Shown here in pieces: positions 4,958-28,120 of a stretch of 64,000 nt of DNA. A program made the translations under genes and the position numbers. This stretch comes from an uncultured Verrucomicrobiae bacterium (GTDB taxonomy: Bacteria > Verrucomicrobiota > Verrucomicrobiia > Limisphaerales > UBA11358), in the NCBI GenBank assembly GCA_963827815.1, contig CAWHCL010000002.1, positions 37,749 to 101,748 of the forward strand, in the 5' to 3' direction. Below the pieces are notes generated by a model. The model saw only the letters and a list, made by a program, of their open reading frames with translations. It made no database searches and was not told the origin of the DNA. Position 1 is the stretch's first letter; each line of letters begins with the position of its first letter.

Positions 4958-5863
4958 GTGAGTAAGCCCGTAAATATTTTGCTGATAGAAGACTCGCCGC
5001 ATGAGGCGGAGTTGATTAAATCTTCGATGGAACAGCACGGCTTTGCCGTGTCCATGCTGCGCGTGTGGGACGCCGCCACAATGACAGCCGCCCTTGCCGA
5101 CCGTGTTTGGGATGTGGTGATCAGCGATTATGTGCTGCCGGGTTTCAGCGGACCGAAGGCACTAGAGATTTATCGGCAACAGGGGCTGGACATTCCATTC
5201 ATTTGCATCTCCGGCAAGGTGGGTGAGGAAGAGGCGGTCGGCATGATCCGGGCCGGGGCGAATGATTTTGTGATGAAACTCCATCTGGAACGTCTTCCGG
5301 TGGTGGTTGAACTGGAGCTGGCACTCGCCGAGAAACGCCGGCAGCAAAAACAGGTGGCCAGGTCGGTCAGCGCCACCGGCCTGTGTCCGTTGTGGGCGAA
5401 GATTTTTGACGCGAATGACCCGGGCGAAATGAAACGCGTCCGGCGGGTAGTCGCTTTCGCCTGCGAAAAACTGGAACAGCCTGCCGGCCTGTCGGCGACC
5501 GCGAAAGAATCCGTCGAATCCGCGCGCCGGCACGATGCGCGGCAATGGGATTATCCCTACGGCTGGGCACCGCACCAGATGCTCGCATGGCGTGGATTGA
5601 AAAATTATGGTCTTGATGCCGACGCCGGGCGGCTCGCCTACCGCTGGCTTTACACGATTGTAAAAAATGCGCACGACTACAACGGCACCATTCCTGAAAA
5701 ATACAACGTTGTCACCGGCTCACACGAGGTGTTCGTGGAATACGGCAACGTCGGGACAAAATTCGCCTACATGGCCACCGAAGGTTTTGGCTGGATGAAC
5801 GCCTCGTTCGAAGTGGGGATGAATTATCTTTCACCGCACAACTGGCTGATTTGCACAAATTGA
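4958..5863 (+). CDS. Chimeric ORF: response-regulator receiver domain fused to a C-terminal fragment of GH37 trehalase
   Basis: GTG start. The N-terminus is a receiver (ILLIEDSPHEA, DVVISDYVLPGFSG, ICISGK, NDFVMK). The C-terminal ~170 aa match the trehalase C-terminus: QWDYPYGWAPHQ, EKYNVV, GFGWMNASF (compare E. coli TreA QWDAPNGWAPLQ, EKYDV, GFGWTNG). The N-terminal two-thirds of the trehalase are absent. Confidence 0.7.
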   Translation: MSKPVNILLIEDSPHEAELIKSSMEQHGFAVSMLRVWDAATMTAALADRVWDVVISDYVLPGFSGPKALEIYRQQGLDIPFICISGKVGEEEAVGMIRAGANDFVMKLHLERLPVVVELELALAEKRRQQKQVARSVSATGLCPLWAKIFDANDPGEMKRVRRVVAFACEKLEQPAGLSATAKESVESARRHDARQWDYPYGWAPHQMLAWRGLKNYGLDADAGRLAYRWLYTIVKNAHDYNGTIPEKYNVVTGSHEVFVEYGNVGTKFAYMATEGFGWMNASFEVGMNYLSPHNWLICTN

Positions 5864-7635: not shown

Positions 7636-9303
7636 ATGAAAGGTCCAGTCAAACATGTTGAGCTTCTAGATTACATCCGGGGCATTGCAATTATTGCAGT
7701 GTTGCTTTTCCATAGCCTCAACACTGTCTACGGATACGACGCGCTCCCATGGAAAGGGTGGTTCCGTGATTTTTCAGCTCCGCCAATTTCATACCTTTGC
7801 TTTCTTCCTTTTAGTATTGGCGATGCAGGCGTTGCTATTTTCTTTGTTGTCAGCGGGTTTTGTATACATTTGAGTTTTCAACAGCAGGGGCAGAGGTGGA
7901 GTGGCTTTTTTATAAGAAGGTTTTTTCGAATATACCCCGCTTACTTTGCAGCGCTGATCTTTTTTGTCTCCGTTGGTTTTTTTAATATGAGGATTTTCGG
8001 GATGAACTGGACCGACATATTTAACTGGAAGGCTGGTGTACAACCGTTTACACACTTAATTCTGATTCATAACATTCATCCTTATACGCTTGGTGGAATC
8101 AATGGTTCATTTTGGAGCCTGGCCATAGAAGCTCAGTTATATTTGCTATACCCAGCATTGCTCGTTTTGGTCGCTAAGTTCGAGTGGCGCCTTACCATGG
8201 TTCTCCTTGCGGGAATCGAACTGCTGATTCGCGGATTTGACGGTAGCCTTGTACTGTCTGGAACTGCCACAAGCACTGTTTGGGATTACGTTTCCTACCT
8301 ATTGGCCAACTCACCTTTGGATTACTGGTTCAGTTGGGCGCTTGGCGCCTTTGTCGCTGATGCTTTTCTAAAAAATCAACCATTGCCTTTCACAAAGGCC
8401 CCGACAATTTTGTGGTTCAGTTTGGCGATTATCAGTTATTTCATAAAACCATTGTTCCCATTTAGGTTTTTATTGTCCGCCGTGACGACAGCGGTTATTA
8501 CAAGTAAGCTATTAAGCGGCTCCCCGTCTCCTATTAAAGCAACAAGTCTCCCATTGAATTCACTCAAGCATATTGGTTTGTGGAGTTACAGTATTTATCT
8601 ATTACACCAACCACTTCTACAAATATATTGTAATGTATTTGCTGGGGTTGCTCCAAAGGAATACTGTTTAGATCCGATTATATTTTTGTTTCTTGTTGCT
8701 ATGTGGCTTGTCATAGTGCCACTTAGAATTTTGTGGTATAAAGTCATTGAGATTCCCGGCATTGCCTTGGGTAAGCATATTATTCGACAATTGGACATTC
8801 GTCACGGCACTACAATTGTTCCGGAGAGTTTGCATATGAATGAAACTGCATTGCTATCTCACCAAACCATAAACAATCACAAATGCATCACGATAAAAGG
8901 CCGTTATTTCTCGATGGCTGCTGCCTTGTTGACCATCATCGCCGGAACCTTCTTTATATGTGCGAACTATGTTACGCCAGCACCTGAGATAAAGAACAAT
9001 AAGGCATGGTCACTTGCCACCAATCCGGACGCAACCAAAAGAAACGGAGCACTCGCTGTGAAACTTGCCGAAGAAGCCTGCCAAAGGACTCATTATCAAA
9101 CAACCATCATGGTTGGAACTCTGGCAGCAGCCTACGCAGAAGCAGGGCGATTTGATGACGCAATTGCAGCCGCCCAAAGAGCTTGCGATTTAGCAACGCA
9201 GCACGGCGAAAAAGATTTATTACAGAAAAATCAGGAGCTACTAAAGATGTTCCGTTCTCATCGGGCATATCATGAACCCTTTAATACCGTTCAGCCGCAA
9301 TAA
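7636..9303 (+). CDS. Acyltransferase-3 family membrane protein with C-terminal TPR-like soluble domain
   Basis: IRGIAIIAVLLFHS and FFVVSGFCIHLSF motifs, about 10 TM segments, and a C-terminal helical-repeat region (AEEACQRT..AAAYAEAGRFDDAIAAAQRA). Markedly AT-richer than its neighbours. Confidence 0.85.
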   Translation: MKGPVKHVELLDYIRGIAIIAVLLFHSLNTVYGYDALPWKGWFRDFSAPPISYLCFLPFSIGDAGVAIFFVVSGFCIHLSFQQQGQRWSGFFIRRFFRIYPAYFAALIFFVSVGFFNMRIFGMNWTDIFNWKAGVQPFTHLILIHNIHPYTLGGINGSFWSLAIEAQLYLLYPALLVLVAKFEWRLTMVLLAGIELLIRGFDGSLVLSGTATSTVWDYVSYLLANSPLDYWFSWALGAFVADAFLKNQPLPFTKAPTILWFSLAIISYFIKPLFPFRFLLSAVTTAVITSKLLSGSPSPIKATSLPLNSLKHIGLWSYSIYLLHQPLLQIYCNVFAGVAPKEYCLDPIIFLFLVAMWLVIVPLRILWYKVIEIPGIALGKHIIRQLDIRHGTTIVPESLHMNETALLSHQTINNHKCITIKGRYFSMAAALLTIIAGTFFICANYVTPAPEIKNNKAWSLATNPDATKRNGALAVKLAEEACQRTHYQTTIMVGTLAAAYAEAGRFDDAIAAAQRACDLATQHGEKDLLQKNQELLKMFRSHRAYHEPFNTVQPQ

Positions 9304-9423: not shown

Positions 9424-9687
9424 TTAATGACCGCCGTGTCCGCCGCCGCCGCCATCAAAGCCTCCGCCGTGATGTCCCCCGCCAAATCCCCCGCCATCGT
9501 GGTGTCCATGATGTCCATGATGATGACCGGAGCCAGAATCATCAGGATTGCCACTTGAACCGGAATCACCGCCACCCCAAAACACGCCACCATCGAGTAA
9601 CGAGCTCTTCTTCCGGCGGAGGTAGATAAACAAAATCATTGCCCCAACGCAAAATAGGACGGTCAGTATTGCAACGGTCAATTCCAT
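9424..9687 (-). CDS. Small single-TM protein with Gly/His/Asp-rich tail
   Basis: MELTVAILTVLFCVGAMILFIYLRRKK is followed by GGGDSGSSGNPDDSGSGHHHGHHGHHDGGGFGGGHHGGGFDGGGGGHGGH. The ORF opens at 9735, but that ATG lies inside a repeated non-coding motif, so ATG 9687 is preferred. Confidence 0.5.
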   Translation of the reverse strand: MELTVAILTVLFCVGAMILFIYLRRKKSSLLDGGVFWGGGDSGSSGNPDDSGSGHHHGHHGHHDGGGFGGGHHGGGFDGGGGGHGGH

Positions 9688-9699
9688 GTGCTTTCGCCC

Positions 9700-9735
9700 G
9701 GCAGAATCCGCCTGCTGCCAGATCATGTCCAGCAT
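9700..9735 (-). repeat. Upstream motif family 1, copy 1 (GGCAGAATCCGCC..GCCAGATCATGTCCAGCAT)
   Basis: 31/36 identical to 29319-29354 and similar to 12570-12602. All three copies share one orientation and lie 5' of minus-strand genes. Confidence 0.8.
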
Positions 9736-9743
9736 TTTTGGAC

Positions 9744-9807
9744 TCGAATTGCACGAATTGTCACGGATTCCAATTCAATCAGTGTAAATCAGTGAAATTC
9801 GTGTCAC
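9744..9807. repeat. AATTCGYG-type tandem/inverted repeat locus
   Basis: ctcgaattgcacgaattgtcacggattc (reverse-type units) faces cagtgaaattcgtgtcac (forward-type unit). cacgaatt and aattcgtg can pair. Confidence 0.75.
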
Positions 9808-9872
9808 AGGTCTCTGCCGACGGCCACCAAACGCCATCGTTTTTACCATGACATACGATGAGACATCGCATC

Positions 9873-10475
9873 CTAATAATGAGACATAACACCACTTGAG
9901 GGTATGTCCGTTGGTGCCTGTTGTGCTTGAGTCAAATTAGTGCCGGGCGTGTGGTATGAACCAACCTTATTCGTGTTGATCCAAGTCAGCATTTGTATGG
10001 CTGTTTCCGGATCTTTCAAAAGCGGTAATACATTACTACTCGAAGCTGGAGGCTTGTTTGTGTCACTTGCAGTCGTCGTAGTGACACCGGCAAAAAGGAT
10101 GTTCTTAAAGGTGATGGTAATTGTGTTGGCGGTTTGCGATGTCTGGCTGCTTGAATGGCTGCCACTCACATTCGCACCCATATTTAGGCCTGTTGCAATC
10201 GGCGCTGAAACGGTCAATCCACTAGATTCAGTGCTGTAATCCGAATGGCTCACGCCCACATTCAGCGTGACAGTAACTGTATCTGGCAACAAGCCGGTGC
10301 TGACTCCTTGTTCGTTTGTCTTCATTTGATAAAACCCCCTGCCGATGGAGGCCATGGCGTCTTCCAGAGTGATACTGCCGCGTGAATTATTCGATTGAGA
10401 GCCTGTCATGCAGCATCCAGGCAGCAATGTTGTGATGAGCAGGGAAACCCCACACAATTCAATTATTTTTTTCAT
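9873..10475 (-). CDS. Hypothetical lipoprotein
   Basis: MKKIIELCGVSLLITTLLPGC has a lipobox. Ser/Thr-rich 200-aa product, AT-richer than neighbours. No family recognised. Confidence 0.65.
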   Translation of the reverse strand: MKKIIELCGVSLLITTLLPGCCMTGSQSNNSRGSITLEDAMASIGRGFYQMKTNEQGVSTGLLPDTVTVTLNVGVSHSDYSTESSGLTVSAPIATGLNMGANVSGSHSSSQTSQTANTITITFKNILFAGVTTTTASDTNKPPASSSNVLPLLKDPETAIQMLTWINTNKVGSYHTPGTNLTQAQQAPTDIPSSGVMSHY

Positions 10476-12602: not shown

Positions 12603-12717
12603 TTAATGACCGCCATTTCCGCCGTGCCATGAAATTGGAAGATGGGAGATGGAAGTTGGGAGATGGAAGATGGGAGTTGGGAGTTGGGAGTTGGGAGATG
12701 AGAGTTTGGAGTTGGGT
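12599..12717 (+). repeat. Composite repeat B: GCATTTAATGACCGCC..CCGTGCCATGAAATTGG plus GGAAGATGGGAGAT / TTGGGAG microsatellite
   Basis: Direct repeat of 10590-10708. Its first ~40 nt also resemble the 3' end of the Gly/His-rich gene (9415-9450). Contains (TTGGGAG)x4. Confidence 0.85.
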
Positions 12718-12840
12718 GAAGCCATCCGGTTCATTTTGTTGATCCTGTCCAATCTGTGTCAAAAATACTGTGCAGAATTTTTCTTCAATTCGCGTAACCT
12801 TGAAGGCAAAAATGCGTCTGAATCCGCACAACAAGACCCC

Positions 12841-13617
12841 ATGACCTCACGAATCCTGTTTCTGCTCGCCGCCGTCGCCGCCATGATCGTCAATCCATCC
12901 GGTGCCGTGGCGGCGGATGCCGAAAAACCGCAGTATTACGAGGTGCGGATCTACGCCACCCAAACAGCCGAGCAACAGCAGCGGGTCAACGACTATTGGC
13001 AGAAGGCGGCGGTTCCCGCCTACAACCGCATGGGCATCCAGCCGGTCGGGGTCTTCACCGAGTTGCAGGATTCCGCGACGAACCACATTTATGTGCTCAT
13101 CCCGTGCGACTCACCGGAAGACTTCGCCGCCATCCCGGCCAGGCTCGCCGCCGACGCCGATTACCAGAAAGCCGCCGCCGAATTTTTGAACGCACCGAAA
13201 TCAAATCCGGCCTATATCCGTTTTGAAAGTTCGCTGCTCGTCGCTTTCGACGGCATGAAGCGGATGGTCCTGCCGGCGGCGGACAAGAAGCCAGATGTCT
13301 TTGAGCTGCGCACCTATTTGAGTTCCAGCGAGGGCAAGGGCTTGAATAAAATCAAGATGTTCGAGAGCGGTGAAATCCCGTTGATGAAGGAAGTCGGGCT
13401 GGCCCCGATCTTTTACGGACGGACGATTGCCGGGCTGAACATGCCCTGCCTGGTTTACATGACCTGTGGTGAAAGCCTGGACGCACACAAGCAACACTGG
13501 AAGGCATTCTCCGCGTCCCCCGTCTGGAAACAGTTGACGGGCGATCCGCAATACAAGAACAACGTGTCCCGCGTCATCAGCATCATGCTCAAGCGCACCG
13601 CCGCCTCGCAAATCTGA
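12841..13617 (+). CDS. NIPSNAP family protein (two NIPSNAP-like halves), secreted
   Basis: ORF 12649..13617 trimmed to ATG 12841, since upstream codons are microsatellite. Signal peptide MTSRILFLLAAVAAMIVNPSGAVA. YYEVRIYAT and VFELRTYLS start two repeat halves, with KAFSASPVWKQL in the second. Confidence 0.85.
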   Translation: MTSRILFLLAAVAAMIVNPSGAVAADAEKPQYYEVRIYATQTAEQQQRVNDYWQKAAVPAYNRMGIQPVGVFTELQDSATNHIYVLIPCDSPEDFAAIPARLAADADYQKAAAEFLNAPKSNPAYIRFESSLLVAFDGMKRMVLPAADKKPDVFELRTYLSSSEGKGLNKIKMFESGEIPLMKEVGLAPIFYGRTIAGLNMPCLVYMTCGESLDAHKQHWKAFSASPVWKQLTGDPQYKNNVSRVISIMLKRTAASQI

Positions 13618-13993
13618 AGGCTGCCTGCGATTTCCACCGCACAACCATCACCCGGCCGGCGACACCTCATCCGGCCATTTTCAAGAATCGCCCTTACCTC
13701 ACCCTGCATTTCCCTCACCCGGCTTCGCCACCCTCTCCCGTTCCCACGGGCGAGGGAATGTTTTGTGGGACGTTTTCCCAGGGTATTCGCTTCGCTCAAA
13801 CCCCGGGCTAATATCTTTCGCCCTTTCAGGGCTTCGCTTTGCATACTTTGCGTTTTATTGCGGCAATTGAATCCGTGTTAATCAGTGTCCATCCACCCTC
13901 CGCAGTCTTGCTACGCCCGTCCTCCGCAGTAGCCCTGCTACGGAGGATGGAGATGACGGGTCCGTGGTTGACAGCCCCTGCCATCAGCGCCGA

Positions 13994-14500
13994 TTAGCGG
14001 GCGCTGGTCACAACGTTTGGCGGAGGCATCGGTGCGAGCGCCGTGGCCACGGTATTGTTGGTAAAGTGGTAGGCCGGGCTAAAAATCATTTTCTGGTCGC
14101 CCACCATGAACCACAGGCTGATGGTGCCATGATCGCAATCCTTTGGTGTCGCCATGATTTCTATGTGCCGGACGATGCCATTCTTGGTGGAGGTGGAAGT
14201 GCCGGTGACGGCCACGATCTGGCCCCGATTGACCGCGGCCAGCACCTTGTCCGGAACGTTGATGGCCAGCCGGCCCCTGTCGCTTTTTAAGAAATACGGG
14301 AAGACCCTGACCTTGAAATCGCCGGCATAAACGCCGTTCGTGCGCGTGAGCGGGCTGATGATGAGAGTGGCCCAAGCCGTCGTCAGCGGCATGGTGCTGT
14401 TCTCGACGATGAGCACCCGGCTTGCGGAGTTGGTCTCCGTCGGGGCCGCCTGGGCCGCACACCAACTGGACGCCAGAAGCAGCAGAATGGGTTTAAGCAT
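13994..14500 (-). CDS. Hypothetical secreted protein
   Basis: Signal peptide MLKPILLLLASSWCAAQA on a 168-aa beta-rich product. No family recognised. Confidence 0.6.
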   Translation of the reverse strand: MLKPILLLLASSWCAAQAAPTETNSASRVLIVENSTMPLTTAWATLIISPLTRTNGVYAGDFKVRVFPYFLKSDRGRLAINVPDKVLAAVNRGQIVAVTGTSTSTKNGIVRHIEIMATPKDCDHGTISLWFMVGDQKMIFSPAYHFTNNTVATALAPMPPPNVVTSAR

Positions 14501-14733
14501 TGGCGGGCCAAGATAGTGCCGGGGGGGATTTCATCAAAGTGACATTTTGGTGGCGGTGCTTGCACACGGCCAGTCCTTCCGGACGGGCACCACTTGCGCA
14601 GGGCCACTCCTTGCGGAGGGCCACCTTTACGGAAGGGCCACCAAGGACAGTGCGGCGCGATGTCCCCACCTGTTTTGCCGGCCATGATGACCGGAGCCGC
14701 AACCATCGCCCCTGCCACAAAACCAAAAAATCG

Positions 14734-15523
14734 CTACACCAATGCCAATCGTTCCAAAGTGTTTCGCCGGAATTCCAAATCGGGCACGGGAATTTGTGGT
14801 CGTTCCGGGAATTCATCATAGGTACGGTCGTCCAATTCCCGGCCGGTCTCCTTTTTGCGGACGCCACCCCATTGCTTGAAAAAGAAGGCAACTTTGGCGC
14901 GGTGACATTGCGCGCGGATGTCCCGCACCCAGTCGGCTGCCATTGGCCGCGCGCCCGGCCCGCTTTCGCCGCCGACAATCACCCAATTGATGCCGTTCAA
15001 GTTGATCGGACCGAGAGTGTTCCAGTAGCGGTTCGATGGAAAGGAAACGGACTTGCGCAGGCGAATCGCGCAATAAATCAATGCGCGGCAATCCGTGCTG
15101 GCGATTTTCCACGCTCACACCCCACCAAATATGCGGCTGCTCCGCCGCGAACTTCAATTTGCCTTTCAATAGTTTCTGCATCCGTCCCGCGCGCTTGGTG
15201 AGAATCTGATAGGTGTGCCAGTTGGCGGCTTTCATCACGCGCGCCACCTTGACGATGTATTCATCCGGCACGCCGGGATGAAACAGGTCGCTCATGGAAT
15301 TGACGAAAATCCGTTGCGGGTTTGACCAGCGCAGCGGGTCGCCAAGTTTTTCCGGCACGAGTCGCAGGTCAAATCCCTGTTCAAACGGATGGCCGGGCAC
15401 GCCGCGAAAGCGTTCGGCAAACGTCTCGGCATAGCAATGCAGGCAGCCGGGGCTGATCTTGGTGCAGCCACGCACCGGATTCCACGTTGCATCCGTCCAT
15501 TCGATTTTTGAATTGGCGCTCAT
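14734..15523 (-). pseudogene. Phage Gp37/Gp68 family (DUF5131, three-Cys motif) gene interrupted by one frameshift
   Basis: N-terminal part is in ORF 14816..15565: [42 protein letters not shown]. The C-terminal part is in another frame, ORF 14734..15081: [35 protein letters not shown]. The frames join near 15012-15025. Confidence 0.85.
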
Positions 15524-15577
15524 CGGAAACAGTTTCTCACAAACGATAGGACAAAAGCTGTCCAAGGCGAATTATTT

Positions 15578-16381
15578 TCACAGCAACTCCCGCTGGCCGG
15601 TTTCGCTGATTTTCAATATTTTGTTCCAGAAATCCTCCGCTCGTGGATGCCGGCTGAACAATGTGAAGCGATATAACGGATTTTGTTCTGGAACAGAAAC
15701 GTGTTGTGTGCCGATGAACCTTTCGTCCTTTTGGAATTTATTACAGAAATATTCAACTGCTCGGCGGCCAAATTCACCGAAATCGCCTGTCTTCCATTCG
15801 CGCCAGCTTTGGTCGCCCAGAAAATTGTCGAGCGCCGTCTGGTTGCTTTTGGCATTCAGGTACTGCGGCAGATTGCGAACGATTCCAAGGCGATATTGAA
15901 TGGTAACGAGTAAATCTATTCTGATATTGCTTGCCAACTTTTTCATCGCCGACATCGGCACCTCCGAGATTCCAATCGGATCAACAAAAACAACGGCCAG
16001 CGTTGAATTGTTGAAATTCAACCGCCGGTCCTCTACGACCTTGATCCAGTTTTCGGTGAAGATTGTGACTTTTCCCGCCTTGGGATGGTTGGCGATTCGC
16101 TTTTTCAGAGCGTCTGCCAGCTCTGGGTTCTCCTCAATAAAAATGTATTCCGCAAAATCATGATTCAGCGCAACCAAAGGCGAGCCAGGAAACTCTTCGT
16201 TTGTTTTCTCAATTTTGCATCGGCCCGGCCCGGCCATGACATCCACATAAACCACCTTGAATTTATTCCGCATGGAGACGGTAGTGATGCCGCAATAATT
16301 GTTCAGATAGTGGTGCTTGCGTTCTGCCCATTCATGGCTTTTACGAACAAGGAATCCGTCGCTTGTAGAGAGATTGCCCAT
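15578..16381 (-). CDS. tcmP: Three-Cys-motif partner protein TcmP (methyltransferase-fold-like)
   Basis: HEWAERKHHYLNNY, VYVDVMAGPGRC and GSPLVAL fit the TcmP (TIGR04474) pattern as I remember it. It sits immediately upstream of the DUF5131 gene. ATG 16381 is preferred over TTG 16447, because 16392-16428 is a repeated non-coding motif. About 42% GC in a hand-counted 60-nt sample. Confidence 0.8.
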   Translation of the reverse strand: MGNLSTSDGFLVRKSHEWAERKHHYLNNYCGITTVSMRNKFKVVYVDVMAGPGRCKIEKTNEEFPGSPLVALNHDFAEYIFIEENPELADALKKRIANHPKAGKVTIFTENWIKVVEDRRLNFNNSTLAVVFVDPIGISEVPMSAMKKLASNIRIDLLVTIQYRLGIVRNLPQYLNAKSNQTALDNFLGDQSWREWKTGDFGEFGRRAVEYFCNKFQKDERFIGTQHVSVPEQNPLYRFTLFSRHPRAEDFWNKILKISETGQRELL

Positions 16382-16391
16382 GTGAATTATA

Positions 16392-16428
16392 GCTGGATAC
16401 GCCCAATTCCGAACCGAGTCGAGAAATA
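16392..16428 (-). repeat. Upstream motif family 2, copy (TATTTCTCGACTCGGT..GGGCGTATCCAGC on the minus strand)
   Basis: 30/37 identical to 22831-22867 and 27/37 to 28084-28120. Same orientation, 5' of minus-strand genes. Confidence 0.75.
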
Positions 16429-16459
16429 ATCCGGAAATTTCAATCAACCTTCACCAATT

Positions 16460-16570
16460 GGTAGAGCGCGTCACTTTCGCCTCTATTTTTACTTCGGCGC
16501 GACAAGCTGTACGCGCCATTCGGATTGCCGTCTGCAAAGACCGGCGGGCAGAGGACTGCCCCGCCCTACC
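16460..16570. repeat. GGTAG..CCTACC palindromic element, intergenic copy (subfamily 2)
   Basis: Ends are ggtagagcgcgtcactttcgcctc and ggcagaggactgccccgccctacc. The arms match the arms of the 56293-56368 element in swapped orientation. Internal hairpin ggcgggcag-agga-ctgccccgcc. The terminal CTA (16566-16568) is the TAG stop of the 16566..17366 gene. Confidence 0.8.
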
Positions 16571-17616: not shown

Positions 17617-20600
17617 TTACTGAACACCGACCCGGTAGAAATAGGGTCCGGCGTTGGTTGCGGTCGTGTCCGTGTAGCTGGTCGTGCCGGCCTGACCGAC
17701 TATGTTACTTTGAATGGTCGTGAATGGCGGTTGCGCGGACAAATCGCCGCTGCCCTGGATGAAATAATTCACACCTTCCACACTTTGCCAACTGACGGTC
17801 ATGCCCGGTGAATTAGTGGCGGCAACCGGAACCAGCATTGCCAAAACGGATGCGGGGTCGGTGGGATTCAAGCCGGCAATCCATTTCTGCAGGTTGTTCA
17901 TGCCAGTGCCGTCTGTGTCCGCATAATCCGCCGAACCGTCGGTCGGCAGGCCGTATTGCTGCAACCATGCATAGGAAATGATTGAGGCGGGGGTTTGATA
18001 TTCATAGGCACCGATGTCCACCGTGCCGCCGACGATGCGCGGGTTGCCGTCGAGGTCGGTGGCGGCGGTAACGCAGGTATTGTCGCCGGAGTTGATGCAG
18101 GGGGAGTTGGTTTGAAGGTGGAAATCCCCGCCGGCCGGATTCACCAATGCCGGGTCGTTCGTGATATTCCAAAGGCCCGGCGGCAATGGCGTCGTGCAAG
18201 AATTGTTGAAAGAATATCCGTAAATGCCGAGGTAGTCGCCATAATTGGCCAGCGCGCCGCCGCCGTCAAAATTATCCTGAACGACGCTATTGAAGACGGC
18301 ACAGGCGGCGATGCCGCAGGGGTCCGCCCCGGAATTTCCGACCACCGTGCAATTCACCAGAGTAGAAAGGAGCGCACCGCCGCCACCATAACCGAATTGA
18401 TAAGCCGAGTTACCCACCACGACGCAATTGACCAGCAGGTTTTCCTCCGCGCCGCCGCCGCCCCCGGGAGCGAAGTTGCCGGTGATGAGGCAGTTGGTCG
18501 CGTTGCCGTGTCCCAAACCGCCACCATAATATCCCGAATTGTTTGTCACGAGGCAATTATTCAGCGTGGAGTAAACTGCGCCACCGTAATCGCCCGCCGC
18601 GTTGCCGTTCAAAGTGCATCCGTCGAGAGTGCATCCCTGCGCCCCGCCGCCGTAGTAAGAGACCGAATTGCCGGCGAGCAGACAATTCGTGAGAGTGCAA
18701 TTGTCCGCGCCGCCGCCGGAACTGCCTACCGTGGCGGTGGAGGCATTTGCGGAAATCACACAATCATTCAGGCTGCTGGATTCGGCCCCGCCGCCTTCCC
18801 AATATGCGGAATTTCCAGAAATCGTTGTGCCGGTTATGGTGGAATTATTCGCACCGCCGCCATAGCTTGCCGAGTTGGAAAGCACCCCGCAATTGTTGAG
18901 AACGCATTGATCGGCCCCGCCGCCGTAGTTCGCCGCCGAATTGCTGATGAAAGCGCAGTTGAAAAACCAACCGCCTGACGCGCCACCGCCCGAATCACTG
19001 GCAGAATTGCCGGTCAGCAGACAGTTCGATACGACGATGCCCGCCGCTTCGCAGAAAACACCGCCGCCTTCGCCTGCCGAATAACCGTTCGTCAAGGTGA
19101 ATCCGGCCAGTTGTGTGCCGCGGGCCAGATACACGCAACGCAACGCGCCACCGCCGTCAATCGCCGTCAGCGCGGAACCGTTGACGCTGTGCAACGTCAA
19201 CGGCTTGATCACCGTGACGCGGTTCGTGGTCGAGCCATCCACCGATTCCATGCCGGTTTGATAAACGCCATTGCTGACCAGAACCGTGCTGCCGGCAAAA
19301 GCCGCGTCCACCGCGTCCTGAATGTTCGTCGCGGCCGTATCCCACGAAAGGTAAGGCGCGACAGGGTTTGTGCCGGCGAGCGAAACAAAGTAATTCCCCG
19401 CGACGACTTGAACGACGCAAGTCGAGTTGATGCCTTCCGGGAAATCGTCATTAAACGCCGTGAACACGACCGCGTAATGCCCCGGTGACGCCCATGCGTG
19501 CGACACGGCCAATTGATTGCTCGCGACGATCCCGTCACCGAAGTCCCAGACACTGTAACTGGCGTGACCGATGATTTGCCCGTAGAAATTCACCGTGAAA
19601 CCAACGGCGACGTTTGTATAGTCAGCCTGAATGACAACATCCAACGGGCCGGTGACTGCACCTGCGTAGAATTCATCACAGCCAATGGACGGCGGATTGA
19701 GCCACGCCTGGCCGTCAATGTCCATGCCGGTCGAATATTGCGCGCTGCCGGCGCCAATGCAGGGCGAGTTGGAACTGATGTGGGCGGAATCGGTGAGTTG
19801 CGGGTTGCCGGTGATATTGTCCGCGCCGCTGCCGGGAAGCGGCGTGGTGCAGCAGAAATTCAATGTGCCGCCCGAGTAATTGGCACCGCCCGGCGCGGAA
19901 TTAAAATAAACGATGCAATTGTCCAATGCGCTGCTGTCCGCGCCGCCGCCGGTCGCCGCCGAGTTACCTGACAAGGTGCAATTGTTGAGGGTGCAATTTT
20001 CCGCACCTCCACCGTTCTGCGAAGCCGAATTGCCAACCAGCGCGCAGTTGTCCAGGGTTGAGCTTCCCGCGCCGCCACCGTAGGACGCCGAATTGCCGGT
20101 CAACGTGCAGTTAACCAGCGTACTCGAATCAGCCCCACCGCTGTAAGGCGCTGAATTGTCCGCAAGCGAGCAATTCGTCAGCATGCAATAATAGGCTCCG
20201 CCGCCGGTGTCACCTGAACCGTTGGCAAAGTTGTTGACGAACAGGCAACCATTCGCCGTGCTGTTGTAGATGCCACCGCCATAACCGGCCGAATTACCGG
20301 CGAGCACGCAATTGTTGAGTGTGTCACCGCCTGCCCCGCCGCCAACGAAGCTTGAACAGTTGGTCAAAACACAATTGTTCAAAGTTCCGCCGACCGCCCC
20401 GCCGCCGGTGTCGGAGGCGGAACAACCGCTGATGACACAATTGGAGACAACTGCCGCGGCTGATTCACAATATACCCCGCCGCCGCTGTAAAAATGGTCA
20501 TCCAAATTTTCGTATTGATCAATGAGTGTTCCCCCGCCGGCCAATGTGAATCCCGCCAGAGTCACACTGCCAGCCAGATAAACACAACGCACGGCGGCAT

Positions 20601-22800
20601 TGCCGGCGGGCGTATTCGTATCTTGATAACCCTGAATCACCGTCACCGACGGGCCATTGACGCTTTGCACCGTGATGGGTTTTGTAACGACGACGAGATT
20701 GGTTGGCGATCCATAAACCACCCGGCCGCCGCTTTGATAGACACCATCGGTGACCAGAACCGTTCCTCCCGGAACCGCCTCATCCACCGCATCCTGAATG
20801 TTTGTCGCCGCCGTGCTCCAGGTGAGGAAGGGAGCAACCGGATTGGTGCAAGCGGCATCAACATAGTAAACCTGTTGAGTCGTCACAGACACCATCACGG
20901 TTGCGCTGATTCCACCAGGATTGCTGTCGTTATAGGCAGTCAGCACAACCGGATAGCTGCCCGCAGTTGTCCAACTGTGCGAAACAGACAACTGATTACT
21001 CACCATCGTTCCATCGCCAAAATCCCAATAACTGTCCGCGGTTTTGCCATAAACCAGCCCGCCGAAATTCGCCGCAATGCCCGGCGCCACATTCGTGTAG
21101 TCCACTTGAATTGCCACGCTCAACGACCCGCTGGCGACGCCGGCATGATATTCGTCGCAGCCGATGGACGGCGGGTTAAGCCACGGGTCGCCGTCAATGT
21201 CCACGCCGGTTGAATAATTCGTGCTGCCAGCGCCAATGCAGGGTGAAGCGGCGCTGACATGGGCTGTGTCGGCCAATTGAGGATCGCCGGTGATATTGTT
21301 CGTGCCGCCGCCGGGAAGCGGCGTGGTGCAGCAGAAATTCAATGTGCCGTCCGAGTAATTTGCCCCGCCCGACGCGGAATTAAAATAAACGATGCAATTG
21401 TTCATTACACTCGAATCAGCCCCGCCGCCGCTGACGGTGACTGAATTGAAAACGAGCGTGCAGTTGTTGAGCGTGCAATTTTCAGCGGCGCCGCCATGGT
21501 ATAAAGCCGCGTTGCCCGCCAGCGCGCAATTGTTCAACGCGCTGGAATCAGCGCCGCCGCCATTCAACGCCGTATTGCCGGTCAACGTGCAGTTGTTGAG
21601 CGTGCAGCCTTCCGCGCCGCCGCCATTCAATCCGGCCGGATTGTTTGACAGCACGCAGTTGTTCAAGGTTGAGCCTCCTCCCGCGCCGCCACCGTAGAAC
21701 CCCGAATTGCCGGTCAACGTGCAGTCAACCAGCGTACTCGAATCAGCGCCACCGCTGTAATACGCCGTATTGCCACCAAGCGAGCAATTGGTGAGCGTGC
21801 AACCCGCTGCGCCGCCGCCCTGAAAGCCCGAATTGCCGGTCAGCGTGCAGTTGTTCAACGTGCAATAATATGCACCAGTGCCGGAGTTACCCGACACGAG
21901 ACAATTGTCCAACGTGCTATAGCTCGCGCCGCTGCTTGAGTTACCCGAAATGGCGCAGTTAGTGGCCGAGCCACCGCTCAGGCCGCCGCCACCTTCCAAC
22001 GCGTTGTTTACCGAAATGACGCAGTCGTTCAACGTGCAATCCAACGCGCCTCCGCCCTGGCTGCCGGCCAAGTTGCCGGAAAGCGTGCAACGGTTCAGCA
22101 GGCTCGATGATGCGCCGCCGCCGCCGTAACCGTCGCCAGTATTATTTGTGAGGATGCAATCGTTGAGCGTGCAAGTGTCCACGCCACCGCCCATGCCGCC
22201 GCCATAACCGGCGTAGTTGCCGTCCAGCGTGCAATGGTTCAGGATGCAGCCTTCGGCGCCGCCGCCGGTGCCGGCCGAATTGGCGGACAAGATGCAATTG
22301 TTCAATGTCGCCTGAAATGCGCCGCCGCCATCCACGGCCGTGCCACCGGTGACGATGCAGTTCGTCAAAATTGAGTTTGTGGATTCGCTAAACACGCCAC
22401 CACCGCTGTCTGAAGCCGTTCCATTGGTCAAAGTGAAGCCATCCATCGAGACCGTATTCGACAGGTAGAGGCAACGCAACGCGCCGCCGCCGTCAATCAC
22501 TGTCGCCTCGGGGCCGTTGACGCTTCGCACCGTGACGGCTTTGTTGATGACCACGCGATTGGTCAGCGAACCATAAACGGCACGACCGCCAGTCTGATAA
22601 ACTCCATCCGTCACAAGAATCAAATCGCCGTCACTGGACGCATCAACGGCGTCCTGAATATTCGTCGCGGCGGTGCTCCAACTGGCGTACGGTTGTGTGG
22701 GATTGGCGCTGTTCAAATCCACATACAACACCGCAGCCGGGGAAGAACAGGCAGCAAATCCACACAACACAATAGCCGGGAATATGGACCTTGGGTTCAT
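17617..22800 (-). CDS. Giant secreted parallel beta-helix (Pmp-like GGGA repeat) / PKD-domain protein, internally triplicated
   Basis: Signal peptide [23 protein letters not shown]. Dozens of xNCxLxGNSAxxGGGA repeats. PKD-like WDFGDGT..SHSW..G.Y.V.LTA.N occurs twice. There are three module starts: [11 protein letters not shown].., [11 protein letters not shown].., [11 protein letters not shown].. The C-terminal domain ends FYRVGVQ. Confidence 0.9.
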
Positions 22801-22830: not shown

Positions 22831-22867
22831 GTTGAATATGCCCATTTGCCGACCGAGTCGAGAAATA
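22831..22867 (-). repeat. Upstream motif family 2, copy
   Basis: gttgaatatgcccatttgccgaccgagtcgagaaata, 31 nt 5' of the ATG (22800) of the giant gene. Confidence 0.75.
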
Positions 22868-22981
22868 TTGGACACCCGCCTTCATTTCATTTCGGCGCGG
22901 CAGGCGAATTACACTAACAATCAACGCGCCACCCCACCCCAACCCCTCTCCCCTGCACGCATTGGCCTGTGCGGCCCGCAC

Positions 22982-28083: not shown

Positions 28084-28120
28084 GTGGAATCCGCCCATTT
28101 CGGCACCAAGTCGAGACAGA
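28084..28120 (-). repeat. Upstream motif family 2, copy
   Basis: gtggaatccgcccatttcggcaccaagtcgagacaga, about 190 nt 5' of the HAF gene start (27893). Confidence 0.65.

Follow-up and report, generated by a model that had tools for sequence, protein, structure and literature searches.

A 64,000-nucleotide (nt) stretch of contig CAWHCL010000002.1 from an uncultured Verrucomicrobiae bacterium (the window, by which we mean the whole of this stretch) carries at 14734-16447 the gene tcmP followed by a gene of the DUF5131 family, both on the minus strand and separated by a spacer of 54 nt. The original prediction had described adjacent same-strand genes at this position and had assigned them to a recognised partnership of uncharacterised function; both statements agree with our data, and the pair is catalogued by NCBIfam/Pfam and by PADLOC. 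The locus is a member of an already known, uncharacterised and mobile two-gene cassette, which had been correctly identified and which occurs commonly in Verrucomicrobia of soil and peat. The minimal unit consists of a leader, tcmP, a palindromic spacer and the DUF5131 gene, with the following features in the window:

16392..16428, minus strand: leader or promoter-like motif TTCTCGACTCGGTTCGGAATTGGGCGTA..., 10-47 nt upstream of the tcmP ATG
15578..16381, minus strand: tcmP, intact, 267 amino acids (aa), class I S-adenosylmethionine (SAM)-methyltransferase-like fold, TIGR04474 match
15524..15577, minus strand: tcmP-DUF5131 spacer with the palindrome GGACA-GCTTT-TGTCC (15549-15563), breakpoint site of the family
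15017..15523, minus strand: 5' part of the DUF5131 gene, codons 1-169, with the three-Cys motif; PF07505, 218.9 bits
15017..15017, minus strand: single extra C that shifts the DUF5131 frame by +1, from the alignment with the related loci L001 and L004
14734..15015, minus strand: 3' part of the DUF5131 gene, codons 170-262 and stop, in the +1 frame; PF07505, 97.8 bits

Both family assignments hold against the curated hidden Markov models. TcmP matches NCBIfam TIGR04474 over profile positions 1-260 of 263 (139.3 bits, cutoff 53; E = 2.2e-40), and the DUF5131 gene exceeds the PF07505 gathering threshold of 28.9 bits in each of its two parts: the open reading frame (ORF) at 14816-15565 corresponds to profile positions 1-169 (218.9 bits) and the ORF at 14734-15081 to positions 167-243 (97.8 bits). 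The motifs that had been quoted for the two proteins are all present, i.e. VYVDVMAGPGRC and GSPLVAL in TcmP and the three-Cys motif GCTKISPGCLHC together with the others in DUF5131. The PADLOC-DB v2 models for both components match the adjacent genes and assign them to the candidate systems PDC-M41 (PDC-M41A, E = 6e-21 for TcmP; PDC-M41B, E = 1.5e-64 and 9e-33 for the two DUF5131 fragments) and PDC-M30 (M30B, E = 8e-65; M30A, a weak match with E = 5e-5). PDC systems in PADLOC are putative and without experimental validation, and PADLOC recovered the TcmP/DUF5131 pair through guilt-by-embedding (PMC10855318). The same tcmP-DUF5131 arrangement is present at 44 related loci, the window included. 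Related loci (L numbers) were retrieved via TcmP, with some later look-ups started from DUF5131, and a scan of genome contigs with one protein query returned 3 loci. In gene order, adjacency and mobility the locus agrees with the TIGR04474/PF07505 pair and with PDC-M41/M30, and both PADLOC components are matched; it differs from these in that the DUF5131 gene of the window is frame-broken, and the verrucomicrobial clade differs from PDC-M41/M30 in that it usually stands alone among ordinary genes, not in a defence island, and has its own conserved leader and spacer palindrome.

The true start of tcmP is almost certainly the ATG at 16381, giving 267 aa, and not the TTG at 16447 of the mechanically called ORF, because relatives measure 267-270 aa; the 290 homologues returned are mostly of this length, and the named ones among them belong to Verrucomicrobiia or Limisphaerales; the TcmP of the window is itself absent from the protein collection searched. 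TcmP has no Pfam family match. The protein has the GxG of motif I, an acidic residue that follows strand 2 and a DP motif that follows strand 4, and the invariant residues D47, G51, G53, E83, D134, P135 and G137 are present; judged by these residues, the predicted SAM-binding motifs are intact and the positions expected to hold SAM are invariant. An AlphaFold2 model of TcmP (predicted local distance difference test score, pLDDT, 78) has Trm1 and RlmJ as its best full-length Foldseek matches (E ~1e-7, TM ~0.55), and the modelled fold is that of a class I SAM methyltransferase of the RlmJ/Trm1 type. RlmJ (23S rRNA m6A2030) and Trm1 (tRNA m2,2G) are thus the closest structural matches of the model; TcmP differs from them in that sequence identity is 10-12%, in that sequence-profile searches of the PDB gave no usable match, and in that TcmP is obligately paired with a radical-SAM-type gene. 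A scan of viral contigs yielded no TcmP relatives, and a distant TcmP-like ORF was found in two cyanophages only.

Comparison of the related loci suggests that the two genes have evolved as a mosaic. TcmP and DUF5131 identities correlate over 40 cassettes (Spearman 0.74), with striking exceptions. Between the window and L038, L032 and L034, the DUF5131 genes are 93-96% identical in DNA (synonymous divergence, dS, ~0.33) whereas the tcmP genes are 60-75% identical (dS 1.2-2.2) or, at other loci, cannot be aligned, and the identity switches sharply from ~70% to ~95% at ~15543-15573, i.e. inside the spacer. In look-ups that started from DUF5131, DUF5131 proteins that are 86-90% identical were found beside TcmP proteins that are 32-34% identical and still homologous (hhalign probability 99.9%), and at such loci (e.g. 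L093) DNA homology to the window starts at the palindrome. At L095/L096 a DUF5131 gene at 5001-5798, 80% identical, has no detectable adjacent TcmP, and the 323-aa ORF upstream of it is unrelated to TcmP (hhalign probability 1.4%). Because near-identical DUF5131 genes sit beside divergent tcmP genes with a breakpoint in the spacer, we read the family as a mosaic of a near-constant, slowly evolving DUF5131 gene and exchangeable, faster-diverging and AT-richer tcmP alleles (32-90% identical), in which tcmP is revealed as the variable, recombining partner.

The difference in base composition between the two genes fits into this family pattern. The original prediction had put the guanine-plus-cytosine (GC) content at about 42% for tcmP and 65% for the DUF5131 gene, had found this odd for a co-inherited pair and had taken it to point to separate histories. 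The step exists, at ~10 points and not 23: exact values are 47.6% for tcmP from the ATG (47.1% for the ORF) and 57.1% for DUF5131, in a window of 56.1%, and the GC content at third codon positions (GC3) is 0.56 and 0.67, respectively, with most other window genes checked at 0.66-0.79. DUF5131 is GC-richer than tcmP in 44 of the 44 related cassettes (mean 7.8 points, range 2.8-12.6), its GC content follows that of the flanks across cassettes while tcmP lies ~8 points under them, and the contrast is also found with the tcmP alleles that are 32-34% identical (40% vs 51% and 45% vs 57%). The GC step is an inherited trait of the cassette family in which tcmP is always the AT-richer module; it is not odd for a co-inherited pair and, given that it is found in all 44 cassettes, it is uninformative about this genome. 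That this genome acquired the two genes separately, with the GC step as the record of these events, would agree with the 10-point difference in GC, with the difference in GC3 and with a tcmP that falls below the host range while DUF5131 falls within it. It is contradicted for the window, and we regard it as very improbable, given that the genes, spacer and leader are co-linear with those of relatives at 87% nt identity, that the same contrast is present in all cassettes from hosts of 47-67% GC, and that the tcmP/DUF5131 combination of the window is common to at least 8 other loci. Separate histories are therefore upheld at the level of the family, as the swapping of tcmP at the spacer, and not for this genome; separate acquisition survives only as module exchange within the family.

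The DUF5131 gene of the window does not form a single uninterrupted ORF of ~240-270 aa. A frame break had been placed near 15012-15025, and alignment with L001 and L004 traces it to one extra C at 15017 (GAACA[C]TCTCGG in the window vs GAACATCTCGG in relatives). Deletion of this base restores ...IEPLLEHLGPINL... and a protein of 262 aa that is 97% identical to the nearest intact relatives; compared with the intact L001 protein, identity is 98% over residues 1-169 and 92% over residues 170-262. DUF5131 is in a single frame in 41 of 44 cassettes, the exceptions being the window, L015 and L004, and the extra base is absent from all other single-frame relatives. The private changes of the window gene comprise 13 synonymous and 2-3 non-synonymous ones, two of the latter at the junction codon, its pairwise dN/dS of 0.05-0.08 (dN, non-synonymous divergence) is as between intact copies, and it has no further stops or indels. 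Elsewhere in the window, a PL4 rhamnogalacturonan-lyase-like gene (47541-44749, minus strand) is interrupted by two additional frame breaks, close to 45925 and 45470, and its middle segment is 72% identical to the homologue P0241 only in the shifted frame. A shared sequence context of the three breaks was considered and rejected: two of them have TGTTCCA, which by a rough estimate is within chance for a post hoc observation. With 41 of 44 copies intact, purifying selection on the gene and two breaks in the lyase gene of the same window, the DUF5131 break is either very recent or an artefact.

Assembly indel errors are the simplest explanation for three clean breaks within 64 kb in genes that otherwise show signs of selection, and judging from these comparisons we favor, at somewhat better than even chances, an assembly or sequencing error as the origin of the extra C. 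Alternatively, the frameshift is genuine and recent, and the cassette of this lineage is decaying, with an intact tcmP beside a freshly dead DUF5131 pseudogene. This alternative, to which we give roughly one chance in three, draws on the observation that the extra C lies outside any homopolymer and on variation at related loci: the DUF5131 gene of L015 has independently lost 1 nt compared with L014, a near-identical contig of a sister sample (L014 ~3350 vs L015 ~1520, TTGTTACGTG vs TTGTT-CGTG), a difference that reflects either natural loss of function or an error of assembly and by which the break in the window could also be genuine; DUF5131 is broken twice in L004; and in the L005-L007/L009 lineage all that remains is a tcmP whose 3' end has been replaced and which has no partner. 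Decay is countered by the excess of synonymous over non-synonymous private changes, which speaks against a period of relaxed constraint, by the lack of additional stops or indels in the gene, by the two breaks in the lyase gene, which point to assembly indel errors, and, for L004, by neighbouring genes that are likewise split in its assembly. Two perfectly conserved halves joined by a single-base shift might be read as a programmed +1 ribosomal frameshift with a regulatory role in the expression of DUF5131. This reading is effectively refuted: the shift occurs in none of the ~40 locus relatives nor in the 120 best database homologues (~262-264 aa), the site at 15017 has neither a slippery run nor an in-frame stop or a pause codon, and the zero frame continues for ~65 codons. 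In total, the break is neither long-standing decay nor a programmed frameshift.

DNA homology between the window and L001 (87%) comprises both genes, 16348-14738, and nothing beyond, and homology to other cassettes ends at ~16430 and ~14735. Two elements that had been proposed to bracket the cassette are not its borders: the supposed palindromic element at 16460-16570 folds no better than shuffled sequences (z = -1.5), its first hairpin lying directly after the stop codon of the upstream gene, and 13620-13990 is not a repeat array and is separated from the cassette by a 168-aa ORF (13994-14500). The 46 loci with usable flanks represent 38 distinct, unrelated flank contexts, and a distant copy on a Burkholderia pseudomallei plasmid adjoins TniB/TniQ and Mu-type transposase genes; the claim that such pairs move horizontally is borne out by these contexts and by this transposase-linked copy. 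The 120 nearest neighbouring ORFs belong to 113 different Pfam families, for the most part housekeeping ones, and none of them recurs as a third gene; one cassette is flanked by a CTP_transf_3-family (cytidylyltransferase) gene on one side and a CTP synthase gene on the other. Defence-type genes lie just downstream of the cassette in L001, L010, L011/12 and L020/21 (L011:2191-4959, L020:7684-9732, L010:2225-3823 and L001:10514-12130) and encode an NNH1-NACHT-LRR protein, an AAA_21 AriA/PtuA/GajA-like ATPase and an N6_N4-MTase::NA-iREase1 fusion, in which the partner of the methyltransferase (MTase) is an Mrr-like "NACHT-associated inactive REase" domain. These defence-type genes are absent from the window, and neither gene of the cassette nor any tested neighbour in the window matches a nuclease or DNA-MTase family.

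Two observations concern the surroundings of the cassette. The segment 13752-13841 (core 13802-13833, plus strand) has a sub-threshold Rfam match to the Acido-Lenti-1 small RNA motif (33.6 bits vs 37; E = 3.8e-5), and the 90 nt around it are 86% identical to L035:208-301, which has the same match and is likewise close to a tcmP cassette. At 14559-14643, in the interval from the DUF5131 stop to the following gene, there are ~5 copies of a 17-nt tandem repeat (CTTGCGCAGGGCCACTC-like), and a similar array lies ~730 nt upstream of tcmP in L001 (7198-7269).

The leader is a motif of ~40 nt, TTCTCGACTCGGTTCGGAA(A/T)TGGGCGTA, to whose consensus the window has an exact match, with none in shuffled sequences, and nhmmer detects it upstream of tcmP in ~25 related loci. 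L001, L011, L034 and L038 have a second copy between DUF5131 and the gene that follows it, and weaker copies (TCTCGAC-N16-CGTA) are found on the minus strand of the window at 22832-22869 and 28086-28117, ahead of two transcription units, the first of them just upstream of a 1727-aa PKD/beta-helix ORF (17617-22800). This distribution suggests that the leader may be a lineage-typical promoter-like element that travels with the cassette and represents a promoter type shared within the organism. We rejected the idea that the leader copies are att-like direct repeats, since the same motif precedes unrelated genes of the window and a promoter-type element is simpler. In the window TATAAT lies 4 nt before the tcmP ATG, a position that hints at a leaderless tcmP mRNA. 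The spacer palindrome, in the form GGAC-N7-GTCC, is present in 31 of 46 distinct spacers; its interpretation as an RNA hairpin found weak support, with one two-sided compensatory change versus six one-sided disruptive changes.

Clues to what the pair may do also come from DUF5131 and from the protein that replaces it. PF07505 was formerly named for phage Gp37/Gp68, the PHROGs entry of the protein is phrog_2045, in which no function is assigned, and a homologue search gave at least 8000 scored candidates, all significant, marking a very large family. The three-Cys motif GCTKISPGCLHC has the spacing C20-x6-C27-x2-C30, and its cysteines are invariant in an alignment of 27 sequences. SFLD/RadicalSAM.org places DUF5131 in the radical SAM subgroup Megacluster-5-2, in the same megacluster as spore photoproduct lyase (SPL), which is in 5-3 (PMC9477430). 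Compared with SPL and SplB-like enzymes, DUF5131 has Cx6Cx2C and not Cx3Cx2C, lacks a PF04055 match and is ~100 residues shorter. The intact protein resembles protein A of the radical SAM mobile pair, TIGR04471 rSAM_mob_pairA (E = 1.4e-18, 67 bits, below the cutoff of 355), and sequence-profile searches of the PDB with DUF5131 gave no usable match.

In a sister clade of TcmP proteins, 55-62% identical, the gene directly downstream encodes, in place of DUF5131, a 370-414 aa PF04055 Radical_SAM protein with the motif CSHACRFC (L055, L060, L064, L067, L071, L076, L078 and L079). A PF04055 match and the canonical CxxxCxxC motif, which DUF5131 with its Cx6Cx2C does not have, are found only in these alternative partners of TcmP at other loci. 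The alternative partner, for which PADLOC has no model, has weak matches to the PA0069, Rv2578c and rSAM_mob_pairB families; the first two we take to be SplB-like. It resembles mobile pair protein B (TIGR04470) with E ~1e-9 to 1e-12. Like the TIGR04471/TIGR04470 genes, the genes described here are small, mobile and of the radical SAM type; they differ in that scores are far under the equivalog cutoffs (67 vs 355; 47 vs 410) and in that one radical-SAM-type protein is combined with a methyltransferase-fold protein instead of a second radical SAM protein. The matches to PA0069 and Rv2578c would also relate the alternative partner to SPL and phage M6 gp53. Characterised members of the SplB-like clade act on DNA, SPL in repair and phage M6 gp53 in modification, i.e. 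thymidine hypermodification (PMC8989533). Since a canonical radical SAM enzyme takes the same position in the sister clade, the comparison argues by analogy that DUF5131 would do a radical job equivalent to that of the alternative partner.

Combining these data, we suggest that TcmP and DUF5131 act jointly on a nucleic-acid base, most likely in DNA. In this model, (i) TcmP would bind SAM and serve as the subunit for recognition or methyl transfer, (ii) DUF5131 would supply [4Fe-4S]/SAM radical chemistry, and (iii) the cassette would be an accessory module for modification or of a defence type. We favor a reaction of two enzymes on such a base because of the partner substitution at the DUF5131 position. 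The original prediction had put forward a defence or modification role with explicit reserve, and this reserve still applies; PADLOC lists PDC-M41 and PDC-M30 as unvalidated candidates. The Ophion radical SAM defence system was considered and is unrelated to this pair. We hold the explanation as a whole, i.e. a mobile cassette in which TcmP and DUF5131 act on nucleic acid, with a recent or artefactual break and a GC step that is a trait of the family, to be more probable than not. Several observations weigh against it. DUF5131 has no PF04055 match even at E <= 10. The AlphaFold2 model of the protein is of low quality (pLDDT 63, and under 50 in the Cys region), probably as a consequence of a shallow alignment in which all sequences are at least 78% identical, and on this model Foldseek gives non-significant matches to SuiB and PqqE (E ~0.01-0.04). 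When the profiles of DUF5131 and of the alternative radical SAM partner are compared by hhalign, only the Cys motif aligns (E = 0.019, probability 2.5%). The closest structural matches of TcmP methylate RNA and not DNA, and its motif IV reads DP[I/T]G instead of (D/N)PP(Y/F), differing from RlmJ and Trm1 in that the aromatic residue of amino-methyltransferases is missing. The neighbours in the window and at most loci are ordinary and not defence genes, and the literature searched contained no biochemical or genetic data on TcmP/DUF5131.

The structural matches to Trm1 and RlmJ, both RNA methyltransferases, could be taken to mean that the pair is a system for the modification of tRNA or rRNA, by analogy to Trm5 with TYW1 or to RlmJ and RlmN, and the mostly housekeeping neighbours, including the copy between the CTP_transf_3-family and CTP synthase genes, would be in line with this. 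Set against an RNA target are the patchy and mobile distribution with unrelated flanks, the swapping of tcmP alleles beside a constant DUF5131, the relatives that adjoin NACHT, AriA-like, MTase::iREase or Tn7-type genes, the recovery of the pair by guilt-by-embedding (PMC10855318) and an alternative partner from the SplB-like clade, in which DNA is the substrate of the characterised members (PMC8989533); we consider such a target unlikely. The repeated occurrence of an intact tcmP with a broken or missing DUF5131, together with the diversification of tcmP in the manner of a specificity component, would also be expected of an addiction module resembling restriction-modification, with TcmP as the methyltransferase for self DNA and DUF5131 as a radical enzyme that damages DNA lacking the modification. 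We regard this as distinctly improbable: the asymmetry is biased by the retrieval of the loci through TcmP, DUF5131 is found at 80% identity without a detectable TcmP neighbour (L095/L096), it is a widespread phage family while PHROGs has no TcmP-type family, and no nuclease-like domain is present. Beyond our preferred model of a joint reaction on a base, most likely in DNA, TcmP might be an exchangeable targeting subunit that recruits radical-SAM chemistry, from DUF5131 or from a SplB-like enzyme, to DNA, with tcmP swapped at the spacer palindrome and the radical partner lost repeatedly; the cassette would then represent a new class of base-modification or immune module. This extension is speculative, and we would not expect it to hold.

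Outside the cassette, an Acyl_transf_3 gene at 7636-9303 (plus strand) has a clearly atypical composition, with a GC content of 43.5% and a GC3 of 0.43 in a window of 56% GC, and a recent foreign origin is more plausible for it than for the cassette; further patches of low GC content are at 1321-2181 and 9500-10011. At 12635-12716, just upstream of or at the start of a NIPSNAP-domain ORF (12649-13617), the heptamer TTGGGAG is repeated in tandem 11.7 times.

The copy in the window, an ordinary and possibly mis-assembled copy of a catalogued pair, adds little by itself, and it is the comparative results that make the TcmP/DUF5131 family more tractable. Modestly new among these are the partner substitution by a SplB-like enzyme, the swapping of tcmP at the spacer, the leader motif and the occasional linkage to NACHT, ATPase and MTase-iREase genes. 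That the slot of DUF5131 can be filled by a SplB-like radical SAM enzyme is the best available clue to radical chemistry on nucleic acid. A defined function of DUF5131 would annotate many phage and bacterial genes, and DUF5131 could join phage M6 gp53 as the second case in which radical SAM chemistry installs modifications in DNA.

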